This document shows, piece by piece, positions 56,794-63,275 of a stretch of 64,000 nucleotides of DNA. Within the stretch, counting starts at the first letter, position 1. Each line of letters starts with the position of its first letter. The notes under the pieces are model-generated. The model was not told the origin of the DNA. It was given only the letters and a program-made list of their open reading frames with translations, and searched no databases. Position numbers and translations under genes: made by a program. Origin of the DNA: an uncultured Lachnospiraceae bacterium (GTDB lineage Bacteria > Bacillota > Clostridia > Lachnospirales > Lachnospiraceae); NCBI GenBank assembly GCA_947626415.1, contig CANQSA010000011.1, positions 11,100-75,099 on the forward strand, read 5' to 3'.

Positions 56794-58176
56794 ATGGGAC
56801 ATGCAGATACCATTGCGGCTATCGCAACCGGAATGACGCAAAGTGGAATCGGGATCATCCGGATCAGCGGAACCGATTCCATTTTAATTGCAGACAAGAT
56901 ATTTAAGCCATACCGGGAAAACCGATCCCTGCGGCAGGCAAAAAGCCATACGATCCACTATGGTACCATTGTGGAGCAGGACGCTGTAATCGACGAAGTC
57001 CTGGTGGCCATAATGCGCGCGCCGGCAACGTATACCAGAGAGGATACGGTGGAGATCAACTGCCACGGAGGCGTTCTGGTAATGAAAAAGGTGCTGGCGG
57101 CAGTAATTCATGCCGGGGCCAGGATGGCGGAACCCGGAGAATTTACAAAGCGGGCGTTTTTAAACGGAAGGATCGATCTGTCCCAGGCGGAAGCAGTAAT
57201 TGATGTGATCCACGCGCAGAATGAATTTGCGCTGCAGAGTTCCGTCAATCAGTTAAAGGGAACGTTATCCGTTAAGATCCGGCAGCTGCGGGAGCAGCTT
57301 TTAGATGAGATCGCTTTTATTGAGGCGGCTTTGGACGATCCGGAGCATATTTCTCTGGAAGGGTATCCGGAGCGGCTTTCAGCGCATGTAAAAACGATTC
57401 GGGCGGCTCTGAAAAAAAGCCTGGATCTGTTTGAAAACGGAAGAATCCGGAAGGAAGGGATCAAGACCGTTATTTTAGGCAGACCCAACGCCGGAAAATC
57501 TTCTCTGTTAAATGCGCTGATGCAGGAAGACCGCGCCATTGTAACCGAAATCGCGGGGACGACCAGAGATACGCTGGAAGAACAGGTGCGGCTGGGAACC
57601 GTCAGCCTGCGTCTGGTAGATACGGCGGGTATCCGGAGCACGGAGGACGTCGTGGAGAAGATCGGAATTAAGAAGGCCATGGAACAGGCAGAACAGGCCG
57701 ACTTGATCTTGTATGTGGCTGACAGTTCCGAACCGCTGGATGAAAATGACGCGGAGATCATACAGGCAATCGCGGAGAAACAGGCGATCGTTTTACTGAA
57801 TAAATCCGATCTGGAGCCGGTGACGACGGAAGAAATGCTGAGAGCCCGAATTCCGGATAAGCAGATTTTAACGGTTTCCGCAAAGGAAGAGACCGGGATT
57901 TCGCAGTTAGAAACAGCCATTGAAGCGCTGTTCGGCGACGGAAAGATCCGCTGGAATGAAGCCGACGGAATCACCAATATCCGACATAAGCTGGCGATGG
58001 AAGAGGCGGACGGAAGTCTTGCGGAGGTAGAAAACAGCATTGCGGCAGGAATGCCGGAGGATTTCTTTTCCATTGACCTGATGCGCGCTTATGAGGTGCT
58101 GGGCACCATTGTGGGCGAGCGGGTGGAAGAAGACGTTGTGGAACAGATATTCAGTAAATTTTGTATGGGAAAATAG
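56794..58176 (+). CDS. mnmE: tRNA modification GTPase MnmE
   Basis: DTIAAIAT, GRPNAGKSSLLN G1, DTAGIR G3, C-terminal FCMGK. Confidence 0.96.
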   Translation: MGHADTIAAIATGMTQSGIGIIRISGTDSILIADKIFKPYRENRSLRQAKSHTIHYGTIVEQDAVIDEVLVAIMRAPATYTREDTVEINCHGGVLVMKKVLAAVIHAGARMAEPGEFTKRAFLNGRIDLSQAEAVIDVIHAQNEFALQSSVNQLKGTLSVKIRQLREQLLDEIAFIEAALDDPEHISLEGYPERLSAHVKTIRAALKKSLDLFENGRIRKEGIKTVILGRPNAGKSSLLNALMQEDRAIVTEIAGTTRDTLEEQVRLGTVSLRLVDTAGIRSTEDVVEKIGIKKAMEQAEQADLILYVADSSEPLDENDAEIIQAIAEKQAIVLLNKSDLEPVTTEEMLRARIPDKQILTVSAKEETGISQLETAIEALFGDGKIRWNEADGITNIRHKLAMEEADGSLAEVENSIAAGMPEDFFSIDLMRAYEVLGTIVGERVEEDVVEQIFSKFCMGK

Positions 58177-58206
58177 ATTTCCAAATAAAAAATATTGAAT
58201 TTATGG

Positions 58207-58235
58207 TTGACATTATACAGGTATGGTTATAATAT
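58207..58235 (+). promoter_or_regulatory. Candidate promoter of the type III toxin-antitoxin insert
   Basis: TTGACA (58207-58212), 17 nt, TAATAT (58230-58235). Alternatively TATAAT with a 15-nt spacer. Confidence 0.5.
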
Positions 58236-58241
58236 AAAGGT

Positions 58242-58334
58242 AAGAAAAAATTCAGGTATTTCATGATCTTGGAAAGATGAATTAAATTATGTTGGGTGTT
58301 CCGCCACCATAAAGGGCGAATTATGATAATATGG
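58242..58334 (+). ncRNA. Candidate type III antitoxin RNA region (non-canonical: no clear tandem repeats)
   Basis: Untranslated stretch between the promoter and the terminator, upstream of a ToxN-like gene. Only AATT(C/A) anchors recur at about 34-36-nt intervals. Confidence 0.3.
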
Positions 58335-58364
58335 GCAGAGGCTTCGGCCTCTGCTCGTTTCTTT
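58335..58364 (+). terminator. Intrinsic terminator between the antitoxin region and the toxin gene
   Basis: GCAGAGGC-TTCG-GCCTCTGC stem-loop followed by TCGTTTCTTT. Confidence 0.7.
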
Positions 58365-58379
58365 AACAGAGGAGAAGGC

Positions 58380-58886
58380 ATGGATTTATTTTTTTATGAT
58401 GTTGATCCACAGTATATAAAATATTTAAAACAAAAAGAAATAGAAAAAAGAGGGTTTACACGAGTTCCGGATATTGAATATAAAAATGAAAAAAAGATGG
58501 TTTGCGGGATTGTTTTAGAAATCAATGATTATAAATATTATGTTCCTATTTCGTCATATAAGAAGAAACAAGAGAATAATTTGTTAATTGTGCTTAAAGA
58601 TGATGCCTACAATCAAATAAAAGGATCTCTTCGATTTAACTATATGTTTCCGATTGCGGATCAATATATATCGAAAAGAGATTTTTCAAGATCAAAAAGT
58701 TTAAGCAGAAAAGAATTTCTTCGTAGACAATGGGTATATTGTAATACGATTGTTGAAGATATCAAAAAAATGGCATTAGATACATACAATGAAGTGATTG
58801 AGGGGAAAAATGAGAAACTAATAAAAGCGTCCTGTGATTTTAAGTTATTAGAGGAAGCAGCAAAAGCATACAGAAATACAAAATGA
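58380..58886 (+). CDS. toxN: ToxN/AbiQ-family type III toxin endoribonuclease
   Basis: [38 protein letters not shown] and CDFKLLEE match ToxN/AbiQ hallmarks as I recall them. SD AGAGGAGAAGG. The track start at 58296 runs through the terminator hairpin. Confidence 0.8.
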
Positions 58887-58900
58887 AAAGGAGAATCAGG

Positions 58901-60778
58901 TTGGCAGTATTGGAAGAATCCTATGATATTGTTGTAGTGGGTGCGGGTCACGCAGGCTGTGAGGCCGCGCTTGCTGCCGCAAGACTGGGAAATGAAACGA
59001 TCATGTTTACGGTAAGTGTAGACAGTATTGCGCTGATGCCCTGTAATCCCAATATCGGCGGCAGTTCCAAGGGACATCTGGTGCGGGAGATAGACGCGTT
59101 AGGCGGAGAAATGGGAAAGAATATCGATAAAACCTTTATTCAGTCCAAGATGCTGAATGCTTCTAAGGGGCCGGCGGTTCATTCTCTGCGCGCGCAGGCG
59201 GACAAGCAGGAATATTCCCGGGCAATGCGGAAGACTTTGGAAAATACAGAGCACTTGACTGTCCGGCAGGGTGAAGTATGTACGCTTATCGTGGAAGAAG
59301 GCAGAGTGACCGGGGTAACGACGCTGTCCGGCGCCGTTTATCATTGTAAAGCGGTTGTGCTGGCGACCGGAACGTATCTGAAAGCCAGGTGCATTTACGG
59401 GGACGTGAGTGAACATACCGGGCCTAACGGATTAAAAGCGGCAAATCACCTGACGGATTCTTTAAAAGAGCTGGGAATAAAGATGTACCGGTTTAAGACC
59501 GGAACGCCGGCTCGGGTGGATAAGCGCAGTATTGATTTCAGCAAAATGGAAGAACAGTTTGGCGATACGCCAATAGTACCGTTTTCGTTTTCTACCGATC
59601 CGGACAGTGTTCAGAAAGAACAGATTTCCTGCTGGTTAACCTATACGAATGAAAATACACATAATATTATAAGAAGTAATATCGACCGTTCTCCGCTGTT
59701 TTCCGGTATGATTGAAGGAACAGGACCCAGATATTGTCCTTCCATTGAAGATAAAGTGATGAAATTTGCGGATAAAGAGCGGCATCAGGTTTTTGTAGAG
59801 CCGGAAGGCAATTATACCAATGAGATGTATCTGGGCGGCATGTCAAGTTCTCTGCCGGAGGACGTGCAGTACGCCATGTATCGGACGGTTCCGGGCCTGG
59901 AGCATGTAAAAATCGTAAGAAACGCATATGCGATCGAATATGACTGCATTGACGCCAGACAGTTAAATCCTACACTGGAATTTAAGCAAATAAAAGGATT
60001 ATTCAGCGGCGGCCAGTTTAACGGAAGCAGCGGGTATGAAGAAGCGGCTGCGCAGGGCCTGATTGCGGGGATCAATGCGGCAATGTCTGTTTTGGGACGG
60101 GAACTGTTGATCTTAGACCGTTCCCAGGCCTATATCGGCGTACTGATCGATGATCTGGTAACAAAGGAAAATAAGGAACCGTATCGGATGATGACCTCCC
60201 GGGCAGAATACCGGCTGCTCCTTCGGCAAGATAACGCGGACTTGCGGCTGACGGAAATCGGGGCAGAGATCGGCCTGAATACGAAGGAACAGGCAGAAGC
60301 GGTTGCGAAAAAGTGCGAACAGATCGCAGAAGAAGTGCGCCGTATGAAAAATACACCCATTGGCGCGAATAAACGGGTGCAGGAATTTCTGGCTGCCCAT
60401 AACAGCGCTCCGCTGCACACCGGAGCGACACTGGCGGAGTTGATCCGCCGACCAGAATTGGGATATGAAGCATTGGCGGAGTTTGATGCAGAACGGGAAC
60501 CGCTGCCGAAAGATGTGACGGAGCAAGTGGAGATCCAGATCCGATATGAAGGATATATTGAGCGGCAGAAAAAACAGGTAGAGGAATTTGCCCGTCTGGA
60601 AAAACGAAAATTGCCGGTGGATATTGATTATACGGAAATCCACGGGCTGCGTCTGGAAGCGCAGCAGAAGCTGAATGCGATGAAGCCGTTGTCTATCGGA
60701 CAGGCCAGCCGGATTTCCGGCGTTACGCCGGCGGATATTTCAGTTTTGCTGGTGTATCTGGCACAGAATCAGAAATAG
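58901..60778 (+). CDS. mnmG: tRNA uridine 5-carboxymethylaminomethyl modification enzyme MnmG
   Basis: [26 protein letters not shown] motif. A TTG start at 58901 (SD AAAGGAG) is preferred over the ATG at 58883, which overlaps the toxN stop. Confidence 0.95.
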
Positions 60779-60793
60779 AATGGGTGAAAAGAG

Positions 60794-61594
60794 ATGGAGA
60801 ATATGACAGATCTGTGGCTTCCGCCTGAGATCGAAAAGAAAACAGCAGATTTGTCTTATACAGAAAATAGCATCGGTATGTCCGGCGCCCTCGTTCGGAT
60901 TTACGAGGATATGGTATTAAAGGTTCAGTCGTCCGCTCCGTGGACGAAGCGGGAAGTGACAATCCTCAAATGGCTTTGCGGAAAAATTCCTGTGCCGGAA
61001 GTAATCGCCTGCGGGGAGCAGGATGGAAAGACCTATCTATTGATGACGCGAGTGAAAGGAAAAATGGCATGCGATGAGTTTTTTCTTCAGCGACCGGAAC
61101 TTTTAACTGCGCGTCTGGCTGAGGCGATGCGGATGCTGTGGGATGTGGATATTTCAGACTGTCCGATTTCGCGCGATCAGGAGACGGAACTTGCGGAAGC
61201 GCGTCTTCGAGTGGAGTGGGGACTGGTGGATCTGGATAACGTGGAACCAACCACCTTCGGTCCCGGCGGATTTAAAGATCCGGAAGCGCTGCTTCATTGG
61301 CTGGAGCGTAATCGGCCGTCTTATGAGCCGGTGTTGTCCCACGGTGATTTTTGCCTGCCAAATGTATTTTTTACTGAAACAGGCATCAGCGGTTTCATCG
61401 ATTTGGGTGACGCAGGTGTCGGCGACCGCTGGCGGGATATTGCGCTCTGCCACCGGAGCCTGCGTCACAATATGAGCGGAAAATATGCATCAAAGGAGCG
61501 GGAGATAGACGCAGACCGCTTATTTGACGCGTTGGGCGTTAAGCCGGACGCAGAGAAACTGCGGTGGTATCTGTTGCTGGATGAACTATTTTGA
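60794..61594 (+). CDS. APH(3')-family aminoglycoside O-phosphotransferase-like kinase
   Basis: SHGDFCLPNVF catalytic loop, GFIDLGDAGVGDRWRDIA, DISDCP, and a C-terminal YLLLDELF matching the APH(3')-III-type terminus as I recall it. Confidence 0.8.
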   Translation: MENMTDLWLPPEIEKKTADLSYTENSIGMSGALVRIYEDMVLKVQSSAPWTKREVTILKWLCGKIPVPEVIACGEQDGKTYLLMTRVKGKMACDEFFLQRPELLTARLAEAMRMLWDVDISDCPISRDQETELAEARLRVEWGLVDLDNVEPTTFGPGGFKDPEALLHWLERNRPSYEPVLSHGDFCLPNVFFTETGISGFIDLGDAGVGDRWRDIALCHRSLRHNMSGKYASKEREIDADRLFDALGVKPDAEKLRWYLLLDELF

Positions 61595-61648
61595 TTCAAA
61601 TTCTCCTGTGATTCGGAAGTGTTCATTGGAGATAAAAGACTTGAATAA

Positions 61649-61864
61649 AGAACACTTTCGGATGGCGGCGGTATCGGTAATTGTGAAGGCATAAAAGCAA
61701 AAGCGTTAAAAGAGGCGTTCAGAGTATTGAAGCCGGGCGGCAAGCTCATAACTTCAACGGGTTTTGCAAACAAAGAAACACTTGCTTACGAGCTATATCA
61801 GATATTGCGTAAAGGAATAAAACGCCTTATTAGGGGTCGCAGAAATAGGGGGAGTTTCTGCTAA
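61649..61864 (+). pseudogene. Remnant of a class I SAM-dependent methyltransferase (C-terminal fragment, no start codon)
   Basis: The open frame reads ...KALKEAFRVLKPGGKLITSTGF..., the post-motif-II region typical of Methyltransf_11/25 proteins. There is an upstream in-frame stop and no Met. Confidence 0.35.
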
Positions 61865-61867
61865 AAA

Positions 61868-63208
61868 TCATGGTATCCTTCTCCGTCGCTTTATTTCAAA
61901 CCAAATCAAATAAGCAGATGTGATTATTATCGCAAATATTGTTGCGAGCGGTGTTGCGAAGCCTATTTGAAACAGACTCACTCCGGCAACTTTGCTCATC
62001 AGGTACGAAACGGGAATCCTTACAAGAAATGTACTTAAAATTCCCTGCAAAGCCACAAAACCCGTGTGCCCGTTGCCGTTAAGATACCCTGCCATACTGA
62101 AGCTGAAGCCTACAAGCACGCAGTCAATCGAATATGATTTAAGATAATCTGCCGCAGCCGCGGCTATGTCCGCATCTGATGTGAAGAAATGCGCCAGCCA
62201 TGCGCCGTTTGTAAAACTTGCGGCAAACATACATAATCCCACCGCAAATGTGAAAGCCATTCCTATGAACATAGCTTTTAAAGCTCTGCCGCTTTTTCCT
62301 GCGCCGACATTCTGAGCTGTGAACGCAGAATCCGCCGACATGATCGCGCCCGGAACTATAAACATCAGCGCACAGATTTTTTCCGCCACCCCCACTCCTG
62401 CGGATGCGATAAGTCCGAATGAATTTAAAATTGCAAGAATAACCATAAATGATATACCGGTAAGTAGCTCCTGTCCGGCTATGGGCAGCCCATATTTCAG
62501 GATTTTTATGGTTTCATGTTTTGTTGGCTTAATCTCATTTTTATCGGCTTCTATTCCAAGTCCATTCCGGCGTATAATAAGAAGCGCACTTAAAACGCTT
62601 ATTCCCTGAGCGGCAACTGTCGCGAAAGCAGCGCCGCTGCTTCCTAAATGAAATACGCCGACTAAAATTAAATCTCCCAGTATATTGAAAGCACACGCAA
62701 TACCCATTAAAATCAACGGCGTTTTTGAATCGCCCATTCCCCGGAACATTCCGCTTAATGCATTAAAAAGCACGATAAAAATAATACCTGCTCCGCATAT
62801 TCTGATATATCCGATTGTAAATGAAACAGCCTCCTCGGGTGCGTTCATTACACGTGCAATCGGGACGGCAGTTATCACAATCCCAGCGGCAAGGAGCAAT
62901 CCCGTAAGAATAAACAGGCAAAGTGACGAACCTATTGTTCTTGCGGCACCAGTTTTGTCCCCCTTTCCGATGTTTTGTCCCAATAAAACCGTACAGCCCA
63001 TTGTAAGTCCCGTGATAATTCCGGTGATGGTCTGCATAGCCATACTGCCCGTAGAAACAGCCGATACGGCGGCAGCGTCGGAAAACAATCCAACTATCAT
63101 TAAGTCCACGGTTCCGTACATAGCCTGAAGCAAATTTGCTCCCATAATAGGCAATGCAAATAACAAGAGTTTTTTCCATACCGAGCCCACAGTTAAATTG
63201 TGTTTCAT
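61868..63208 (-). CDS. MATE-family efflux transporter
   Basis: LLLFALPIMGANLLQAMYGTVDLMIVG N-terminus and 12 TM-like segments. The start is placed at MKHNLTV (63208) because the track start lies inside the terminator hairpin. Confidence 0.9.
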   Translation of the reverse strand: MKHNLTVGSVWKKLLLFALPIMGANLLQAMYGTVDLMIVGLFSDAAAVSAVSTGSMAMQTITGIITGLTMGCTVLLGQNIGKGDKTGAARTIGSSLCLFILTGLLLAAGIVITAVPIARVMNAPEEAVSFTIGYIRICGAGIIFIVLFNALSGMFRGMGDSKTPLILMGIACAFNILGDLILVGVFHLGSSGAAFATVAAQGISVLSALLIIRRNGLGIEADKNEIKPTKHETIKILKYGLPIAGQELLTGISFMVILAILNSFGLIASAGVGVAEKICALMFIVPGAIMSADSAFTAQNVGAGKSGRALKAMFIGMAFTFAVGLCMFAASFTNGAWLAHFFTSDADIAAAAADYLKSYSIDCVLVGFSFSMAGYLNGNGHTGFVALQGILSTFLVRIPVSYLMSKVAGVSLFQIGFATPLATIFAIIITSAYLIWFEIKRRRRIP

Positions 63209-63227
63209 AAATAATATGCACCTCCAT

Positions 63228-63275
63228 AAAAAAACGGATAAGAGAGCAGCCATTTCGGACTGCCATCTTATCCGG
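63228..63275 (-). terminator. Intrinsic terminator inside the MATE leader (candidate attenuator)
   Basis: On the minus strand: 9-bp stem CGGATAAGA/TCTTATCCG with an inner GCAG/CTGC pairing, followed by U7. It ends 2 nt before the SD GGAGG of the MATE gene. Confidence 0.65.

Follow-up and report, generated by a model that had tools for sequence, protein, structure and literature searches.

A gene for a predicted endoribonuclease toxin stands between mnmE and mnmG in a 64,000-nt stretch of DNA from an uncultured Lachnospiraceae bacterium (contig CANQSA010000011.1, positions 11,100 to 75,099, hereafter the window), and the short leader in front of it lacks the tandem repeats of the published type III antitoxin arrays. 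The question is which RNA could hold this toxin in check. An earlier note, made from the sequence alone, had described the leader as a non-repetitive RNA whose weak anchors have unrelated interiors, an unusual variant, and had suggested that the antitoxin could be single-copy or could lie elsewhere. We find in the leader one intact ToxI-type unit next to a decayed homologue of a second unit. The locus is probably a ToxIN-family type III toxin-antitoxin cassette of the abortive-infection type, in which a single working unit is left of the antitoxin array.

An apparently intact toxin of the ToxN/AbiQ family

The open reading frame (ORF) runs from 58380 to 58886 on the forward strand and encodes 168 residues, including CDFKLLEE and all other motifs quoted in the earlier note. 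We refer to it as toxN, for a predicted ToxN/AbiQ-family endoribonuclease toxin. The family assignment, which had been proposed from these motifs, is borne out by a profile hidden Markov model and by structure. The protein matches the Pfam family PF13958 (ToxN_toxin) over 157 of 159 model positions (E=1.3e-33), and no other Pfam family is significant; the AbiQ model of PADLOC matches at 4.7e-30. Its sequence matches in the PDB are AbiQ (4glk, 2.4e-11) and Pectobacterium atrosepticum ToxN (2xd0, 1.2e-10), as well as the ToxN proteins of E. coli (7d8o) and Bacillus thuringiensis (4ato). The AlphaFold2 model has a mean predicted local distance difference test score of 90.8, and can be superimposed on 4glk, 2xd0, 7d8o, and 4ato with template modeling (TM) scores of 0.75-0.83. 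Foldseek comparison with the CptN structure 4rmo gave a TM score of 0.33 and E=0.03; with ToxN_toxin as the only significant Pfam family, no likeness to CptN or TenpN was found.

Lys33, Thr52, Ser53, and Lys55 are reported to be the catalytic residues of ToxN (PMC8860590). In the phmmer alignment to 2xd0, they correspond to K38/K39, S58, S59, and K61 of the window protein, respectively. Across 31 relatives, K39, S59, and K61 never vary and at least 90% have S58; the catalytic residues of the toxIN family hence appear to be present. Altogether, toxN retains each of the 35 residues that are invariant, and each of the 26 that are nearly invariant, among these relatives. Compared with its four closest relatives, codon positions 1 and 2 are 85-87% identical, while position 3 is 48-63% identical. 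Because the family match is full-length, every invariant residue is kept, and codon positions 1 and 2 are far better conserved than position 3, toxN looks intact and constrained.

One intact and one decayed ToxI unit in the leader

We compared the leader with those of about 45 related loci (numbered with the prefix L), of which 34 were genomic, 8 metagenomic, several obtained through exact look-ups of the closest proteins, and 2 located on viral contigs. All Lachnospiraceae relatives whose toxins are 59-80% identical to that of the window share the order of promoter, small 5' hairpin, unit A, unit B, terminator hairpin, Shine-Dalgarno (SD) sequence, and toxN. Units A and B are two types of 34-nt ToxI-type pseudoknot. 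Unit A (AGGTGTCCCACTACC..., consensus (T/C)AGGTGT(C/T)CCACTACCTTAAAGGTGAATTATGAT) precedes unit B (TGGTGTTCCGCCACC..., consensus TGGTGTTCCGCCACCAT(A/G)AAGGGCGAATTATGAT), and both are kept down to 59% toxin identity.

The intact unit of the window, UGGGUGUUCCGCCACCAUAAAGGGCGAAUUAUGAU, is of type B and occupies 58293-58327 on the forward strand; it is the presumed antitoxin. Stem 1 pairs 58295-58298 with 58305-58308, and stem 2 pairs 58302-58304 with 58316-58318. We built a covariance model (R1) from 22 units of relatives, leaving the window out. R1 scores unit B at 46.6 bits (E=3.8e-8), and this is its sole match on both strands of the 64-kb window. As R1 matches unit B alone, the antitoxin RNA is neither exotic nor encoded elsewhere in the window, contrary to one suggestion of the earlier note. 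Unit B also shares 97-100% identity with its counterpart, the second unit in the relatives' arrays, and 97% with that of the four closest relatives. It is bracketed by the junction motif AATTATG, which lies at 58285-58291 on its 5' side and at 58319-58325 on its 3' side.

The pseudoknot is conserved in an alignment of 24 distinct units. Its crossing stems, of GGUG/CACC type and CNC/GNG type, are paired in 92% of cells, compared with 21-69% if the 3' partners are shifted by 1-3 columns; the stems were drawn by eye from the same sequences, so this control somewhat favours them. Five of the eight pairs change on both sides. Between the two unit types, the compensatory pairs are A-U versus G-C, U-A versus C-G, and G-C versus A-U. 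The segment 58293-58327 is thus a typical ToxI-type RNA pseudoknot unit, homologous to those of true arrays. Folding of single units, which gave z-scores near 0, was discarded, since pseudoknots are beyond what such folding predicts and it was uninformative here. In a related locus, L005, the unit model has a lone match (2045-2083; 23 bits, E=0.022) about 900 nt 5' of toxN and off the array of that locus.

The second element, CAGGTATTTCATGATCTTGGAAAGATGAATTAAATTATGTT, lies at 58253-58293 on the forward strand and is a decayed type-A unit. Its homology rests on the positional alignment (MAFFT) with unit A of the relatives; when unit B was aligned locally with the leader, only unit B itself was recovered, and unit A scored below the shuffle range. 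Compared with unit A of the relatives, the element has about seven substitutions, predominantly G>A and C>T. It has also gained two insertions, a GG in the loop and a 5-nt duplication of AATTA within the linker. Among the four closest relatives, unit A is 94-100% identical and unit B 100% identical, while third codon positions of toxN are 45-66% identical; hence both units are under strong selection in these relatives. The window differs in unit A, which is only 62-67% identical to those of the four. This is the level of synonymous sites (48-63% between the window and the four) and of the promoter and spacer segments (55-81%, compared with 59-87% among the four). We read this as an apparent loss of constraint on the unit A core, whereas the part that would serve as the 5' flank of unit B has been retained. 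The leader is therefore not the RNA of unrelated interiors that had been described. The suggested single-copy antitoxin holds insofar as one intact unit is present, but a decayed second copy lies alongside it.

The AATTA-AATTA junction (GAATTA-AATTATG) can be read either as a 5-nt tandem duplication or as the trace of a middle unit removed by an imprecise deletion of 29 nt, as both give the same sequence. A middle unit of this kind would correspond to an A+B+B array like that of L050. We also considered that unit A had been remade as a plain 5' hairpin (AAUUCA...UGAAUU with UUUCA/UGGAA). Its minimum free energy of -6.4 kcal/mol is matched by 7.5% of shuffles, and the idea was dropped.

Repeat number in the window and its relatives

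The absence of a canonical tandem array, which the earlier note had reported from inspection, was confirmed computationally. Tandem Repeats Finder (TRF, score of at least 30) and an exact-seed repeat search found no array of 30-40-nt units in 58177-58380. The only repeats there are a 10-nt match between 58215 and 58250, at a distance of 35 nt, and a duplication of 19 nt within the promoter. The latter, reported by TRF at 58202-58242, and the AGGTAT at 58219 were rejected as antitoxin units, both being within the promoter. Among the weak periodic anchors listed before, AGGTAT at 58254 is the start of the decayed unit A, and the AATT motifs at 58250, 58285, and 58319 belong to the 5' flank and the inter-unit junctions; AGGTAT at 58219 is a chance match within the untranscribed promoter spacer.

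We then placed the window among 36 loci, including the plasmid pECA1039, by running TRF also with the two parameter sets of the published census (PMC3401426). Arrays were detected in 31 of the 36 related and control loci, with 1.9-5.8 copies and periods of 33-53 nt; the positive control pECA1039 gave 5.6 copies of 36 nt. No array was found in L012, L013, L019, or L026, nor in the window with default, relaxed, or score-30 settings. Two units with indels are present in L012. L013 (Roseburia), L019 (Hungatella), and L026 (Ruminococcaceae) encode full-length toxins, and in each a single unit sits between the 5' hairpin and the terminator; L026 is a one-unit form of the three-unit leader of L023. 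Hence, single-unit loci recur outside the window. In the closest relative L050, with 80% toxin identity, the array is A+B+B with two identical B units (2037-2138), which indicates that unit number shifts by duplication or deletion of whole units even among close relatives. More distant ToxN loci have two to four near-identical units of 36-53 nt.

The toxIN census gave a range of 1.9-5.6 copies and discarded loci without a TRF match (PMC3401426), so that this range is bounded by its own detection criterion. The window lacks the direct repeats (at least about 1.9, of 31-62 nt) by which Blower et al. (2012) operationally recognized such loci. As it fails this tandem-repeat criterion though it is toxIN by descent, we regard it as a reduced variant and not as a canonical member.

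In Schaedlerella arabinosiphila DSM 106076 (L028:3001-3200), toxN stops after about 66 residues and is followed by unrelated sequence, with promoter, unit A, and unit B intact. L027, L047, and L048 likewise combine a truncated toxN with intact A+B. Loci of this type look like antitoxin arrays left after inactivation of the toxin.

Predicted promoter, terminator, and ribosome binding site

The remaining parts of the leader follow the type III layout that had been proposed (promoter, untranslated RNA, terminator, SD sequence, toxin), as judged from promoter and terminator matches and from covariation of the terminator. The predicted sigma-70-type promoter TTGACA-17-TAATAT is located at 58207-58235 on the forward strand and agrees with the consensus at 10 of 12 positions. 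Its -35 and -10 boxes and an upstream A-rich stretch align among the window, L050, L052, L055, and L042. Transcription would start at about 58241-58243. The predicted intrinsic terminator spans 58331-58365 on the same strand. The hairpin that the earlier note had recognized is located at 58331-58358, has 12 pairs of which seven are G-C, and is followed by TTTCTTT. Its stem is kept in 14 related loci, with compensatory changes at 7 of the 12 pairs, and this argues for an intrinsic terminator between RNA units and toxin, as in other toxIN loci. The SD sequence of toxN, GAGGAG (GGAG-type; 58369-58374, forward strand), lies 5 nt 5' of the ATG at 58380, and its AGGAG is conserved in relatives.

An Rfam search (E of at most 10) revealed no ToxI-like or other meaningful family in the leader. 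The best match, sbrA (22.9 bits, gathering score 45), and the matches to STnc400 and rliE were rejected, as they cover the terminator hairpin only.

Farther upstream, many relatives with about 70% toxin identity share a conserved stretch of about 90 nt, …TTGAATATTTTTCACAGATTGTG.TATACTAATTGTGG…TGAATGCAGGAAAAT, which is located about 60-150 nt 5' of the toxI -35 box. It occurs in different genomes (L002, L003, L006, L007, L009, L014, L017, and L046) and carries a promoter-like TTGAAT-17-TA.ACT of its own. The window and L050 retain only its first bases (AAAATATTGAAT).

A mobile cassette between mnmE and mnmG

The gene calls place mnmE (56794-58176) and mnmG on either side of the toxIN cassette. 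The gap between them is 724 bp in the window, in agreement with the AT-rich insert of about 720 bp described before, and 50-54 bp in two insert-free related strains. The GC content is 25-35% between about 58100 and 58900, with about 50% on either side; the cassette itself is about 680 bp with 30% GC. The identical toxin is found in five other assemblies, always between mnmE and mnmG and with 0 differences over 781 nt.

The comparison of mnmE-mnmG junctions that the earlier note had proposed was made with two cassette-free sites. Exact-sequence look-ups of the toxin and MnmE returned the same strain only, and these sites were found through the 90% cluster of MnmE. L057 (GCA_947625465.1) is 95.3% identical to the window in mnmE and 96.5% in mnmG at the nucleotide level, and L058 is 95.9% identical in mnmE. 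The gaps are L057:4884-4933 (50 nt) and L058:2503-2556 (54 nt). The segment missing from both, 58181-58861 on the forward strand, is AT-rich and comprises the cassette minus its last about 25 nt. Both gaps hold AAAAGC(A/T)TACAGA(G/A)AT(A/G)CAAAGTGA, also written AAAAGCATAC...TGA, which corresponds to the 3' end of toxN at 58862-58886 (forward strand), that is, the last 8 codons and the stop (K A Y R N T K *). The identity to the window is 92-95% over a 39-nt local match (58862-58900). The K-x-Y codons at the end of toxN are family-typical and Tyr164 is invariant. As the kept codons include them, the cassette-free sites would more readily be deletion scars, from which the module was lost, than virgin sites, and we take this to be fairly probable. 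The alternative is an insertion joined by AAAAG microhomology, which would leave the same picture. A second scar derived from the T-tract behind the terminator (TTTCTTTA(C)AA) in L057 and L058 is not claimed; the idea came with an 11-nt exact match of these two to L050, and against the window cassette 15% of shuffles score equally well.

Homology among cassettes begins about 25 nt 5' of the -35 box and ends with the stop codon of toxN. Relatives of the cassette are found 3' of atpC (L052, L053), in the interval between a Bac_transf gene and NAPRTase (L055), and beside Flg_new genes (L050). With at least five different genomic contexts, mostly co-directional with the neighbouring genes, the cassette is mobile. 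No recombinase or terminal repeats accompany it across the compared loci. A predicted viral contig of 107 kb (IMGVR_UViG_3300045988_153380; L060:1330-1500) encodes a 59%-identical toxN behind the same A+B leader; this cassette clade may therefore also travel on phages or prophages.

The cassette directly abuts mnmG. The mnmG SD sequence (GGAG, 58890-58893) begins 3 nt after the toxN stop, and the TTG start called for the 625-residue MnmG is at 58901, 15 nt past that stop; together these signals occupy 58890-58903 on the forward strand. No terminator was found between toxN and mnmG, so mnmG must be transcribed by read-through of the toxI terminator. This housekeeping gene is now downstream of the toxI promoter and terminator (58884-58903).

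A 76-residue ORF on the minus strand (58151-58381) overlaps the leader, and was treated as spurious, as nothing observed pointed to a gene, though no family or homology search was aimed at it. On pECA1039 (NC_011767.1; L059:872-1093), a RefSeq-derived coding sequence for a 'hypothetical protein' is annotated across the ToxI repeat array, an example of the mis-annotation to which type III antitoxin RNAs are subject. The minus-strand ORF of the window is probably an artefact of the same kind.

Genes for an APH-family phosphotransferase (60794-61594) and, on the minus strand, for a MatE transporter (61868-63253) lie downstream of mnmG in the window. L057 (6811-7932) has a DUF4097 gene directly after mnmG in place of 60794-63253, which makes a second indel difference. 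This second indel adjoins the origin-proximal rnpA-yidC-jag-mnmE-mnmG block.

A working model and its alternatives

By analogy with characterized members of the family, we infer how the window locus would process its RNA, inhibit its toxin, and act against phage. A strong promoter would give a leader of about 120 nt ending at the terminator, where most transcripts would stop, so that leader RNA is made in excess, and read-through would yield toxN and, in the window, mnmG. Each leader would supply one intact 34-nt ToxI-type pseudoknot, unit B, between single-stranded AAUUAUG junctions. ToxN would cut at these junctions and the freed unit would stay bound across the active site, leaving ToxN inactive (PMC3401426, PMC8860590, PMC5772629). 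A halt of transcription, for example upon phage infection, would let the short-lived RNA decay; free ToxN would then be toxic by cutting cellular and phage RNA, leading to aborted infection or growth arrest. Unit A, its constraint lost, would now serve mainly as the junction on the 5' side of unit B. Since each transcript would carry a single unit, the RNA:protein ratio would be set by terminator efficiency alone, and the safety margin would be thinner than at multi-repeat loci. Family precedent (ToxIN, AbiQ) and the PADLOC match to AbiQ are indications of a role in abortive infection.

Several points weigh against this model. In repeat experiments reviewed elsewhere (PMC5086642), antiQ needed at least 1.8 of its 2.8 repeats in cis, with 0.8 repeats being inviable, and ToxI of P. 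atrosepticum needed 2.5 of 5.5 repeats in cis; one full unit with both flanks is accordingly near the functional minimum. The junction GAAUUAUG is conserved but lacks AAAU, the cut site of the Pectobacterium and E. coli ToxN proteins. Purifying selection on toxN is read from whole pairwise distances, not from the window's own branch. Finally, unit A may retain some antitoxin function, since seven of its eight pseudoknot pairs, by our visual count in alignment A3, can still form, and one retained pairing involves a double compensatory change (CAC/GUG to CAU/AUG).

This last point leads to the strongest rival, in which both units work and unit A has diverged without decaying, so that the window would hold a two-unit array of unlike pseudoknots that each bind ToxN. 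Such an array would stand at the extreme of the A/B heterogeneity found in this clade. The seven pairs lie in 58255-58280, with a G-C to G-U change at another pair; the 3' half and tail of unit A are well kept, and non-identical repeats that might still fold have been noted in E. coli tenpIN (PMC12283969). However, unit A scores only 2.8 bits with the covariance model (E=0.79 even when just 224 nt are searched), below the score of a gammaproteobacterial ToxI. Four of the 10 positions that are invariant in all 22 other units are altered, and two insertions interrupt the loop and the linker. Identity to type A has dropped to that of synonymous sites, against 94-100% in the close relatives, and G>A or C>T changes predominate, which is what drift in an AT-rich element would produce. 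We consider this rival unlikely.

A slightly less likely reading is that the whole module is being lost. The array would be eroding and the toxin attenuated or poorly expressed, leaving a near-neutral passenger whose promoter and terminator chiefly affect expression of mnmG. Related strains without the cassette retain its 3' end, as could result from loss; unit A has decayed, and the four loci with truncated toxN show that inactivated toxins occur beside intact A+B. Against this, toxN of the window is full length with every invariant and nearly invariant residue, its codon positions 1 and 2 are far better conserved than position 3, and unit B, both junction motifs, terminator, SD sequence, and promoter are all intact.

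A reading in which the toxin is controlled by a novel RNA that has neither repeats nor a relation to ToxI, or by an antitoxin encoded elsewhere, would fit the negative TRF and Rfam searches of the leader. It is very improbable, given that both homology and structure identify 58293-58327 as a ToxI-type unit and that the 64-kb window holds no other.

The reduced ToxIN cassette with unit B as its working unit is therefore the reading that we retain. A broader proposal, which we put forward tentatively and hold to be somewhat doubtful, is that single-unit type III loci are functional and recurrent (4 of 36 ToxN loci), and that types A and B are separately conserved, with B sufficient and A distinct and dispensable. 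If so, pipelines that require tandem repeats miss single-unit loci, and some 'orphan' ToxN/AbiQ genes are not orphans; unit A could have a role such as tuning the activation threshold or complex assembly, and the window would be a natural knockout of it.

The system is mechanistically known, and the recurrent single-unit loci and the conserved array of unlike units A and B are small additions to it. In the window and three other loci, ToxN is kept with one intact ToxI unit, below the published 1.9-5.6 repeats. The clade holds two unlike units in fixed order and under strong selection, and the window indicates that the first one can be lost. The A/B system offers a simple genetic handle on the roles of repeat number and repeat identity. 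Moreover, a self-contained cassette of about 0.7 kb here sets a terminator and a toxin gene before the housekeeping gene mnmG.

Comparison with known systems

We compared the window locus with characterized and catalogued type III systems. ToxIN of pECA1039 (P. atrosepticum; also E. coli ToxIN, 2xd0/7d8o) has the same toxin family and fold, and the same order of promoter, RNA units, terminator, and toxin. The pseudoknot plan is also alike, with AGGUG...CUACCUUUAAG...GCA in ToxI and AGGUG...CACUACCUUAAAGGUG in the window. The pECA1039 ToxI repeat, AGGTGATTTGCTACCTTTAAGTGCAGCTAGAAATTC, part of which is printed in PMC5772629, was confirmed with 100% identity on NC_011767.1, and the clade covariance model makes weak in-register matches (8.7-10.6 bits) to every ToxI repeat. 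The differences lie in number, junction, and setting. pECA1039 has 5.5-5.6 near-identical 36-nt repeats with a GAAAU cleavage motif in the junction (PMC8860590), while the window has one intact 34-nt unit, one decayed unit, and the junction GAAUUAUG, at which its ToxN would presumably cut. The two toxins are about 23% identical; the pECA1039 locus is plasmid-borne, whereas that of the window lies on the chromosome, with mnmE and mnmG on its two sides.

AbiQ/antiQ of Lactococcus lactis (4glk) is the best PDB sequence match to toxN (E=2.4e-11), and likewise comes from a Gram-positive host and has a short array, with units of 35 nt. It differs in having 2.8 antiQ repeats (PMC5086642), compared with about one unit and the tail of a decayed unit in the window. 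The gut Clostridia toxIN loci of Blower et al. (2012), for example those in Roseburia intestinalis, Ruminococcus torques ATCC 27756, and Clostridium nexile, are alike in family and phylogenetic neighbourhood; by description, they are small chromosomal loci whose units of 31-62 nt occur in 1.9-5.6 copies (PMC3401426). TRF repeats were required for their recognition, a filter that the window, L013, L019, and L026 do not pass.

Two systems with other toxins share features of the RNA. E. coli tenpIN cluster 1 has two non-identical repeats that may both fold (PMC12283969), but its toxin belongs to the TenpN family, whereas the A/B pair of the window clade occurs in the toxIN family, whose repeats are described as 'mostly perfect' (PMC12283969). 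CptIN of Eubacterium rectale (4rmo) is likewise a type III system with an RNA pseudoknot antitoxin, and comes from the same bacterial family as the window; it differs in its dissimilar toxin (TM 0.33) and in its units of 40-48 nt (PMC3401426).

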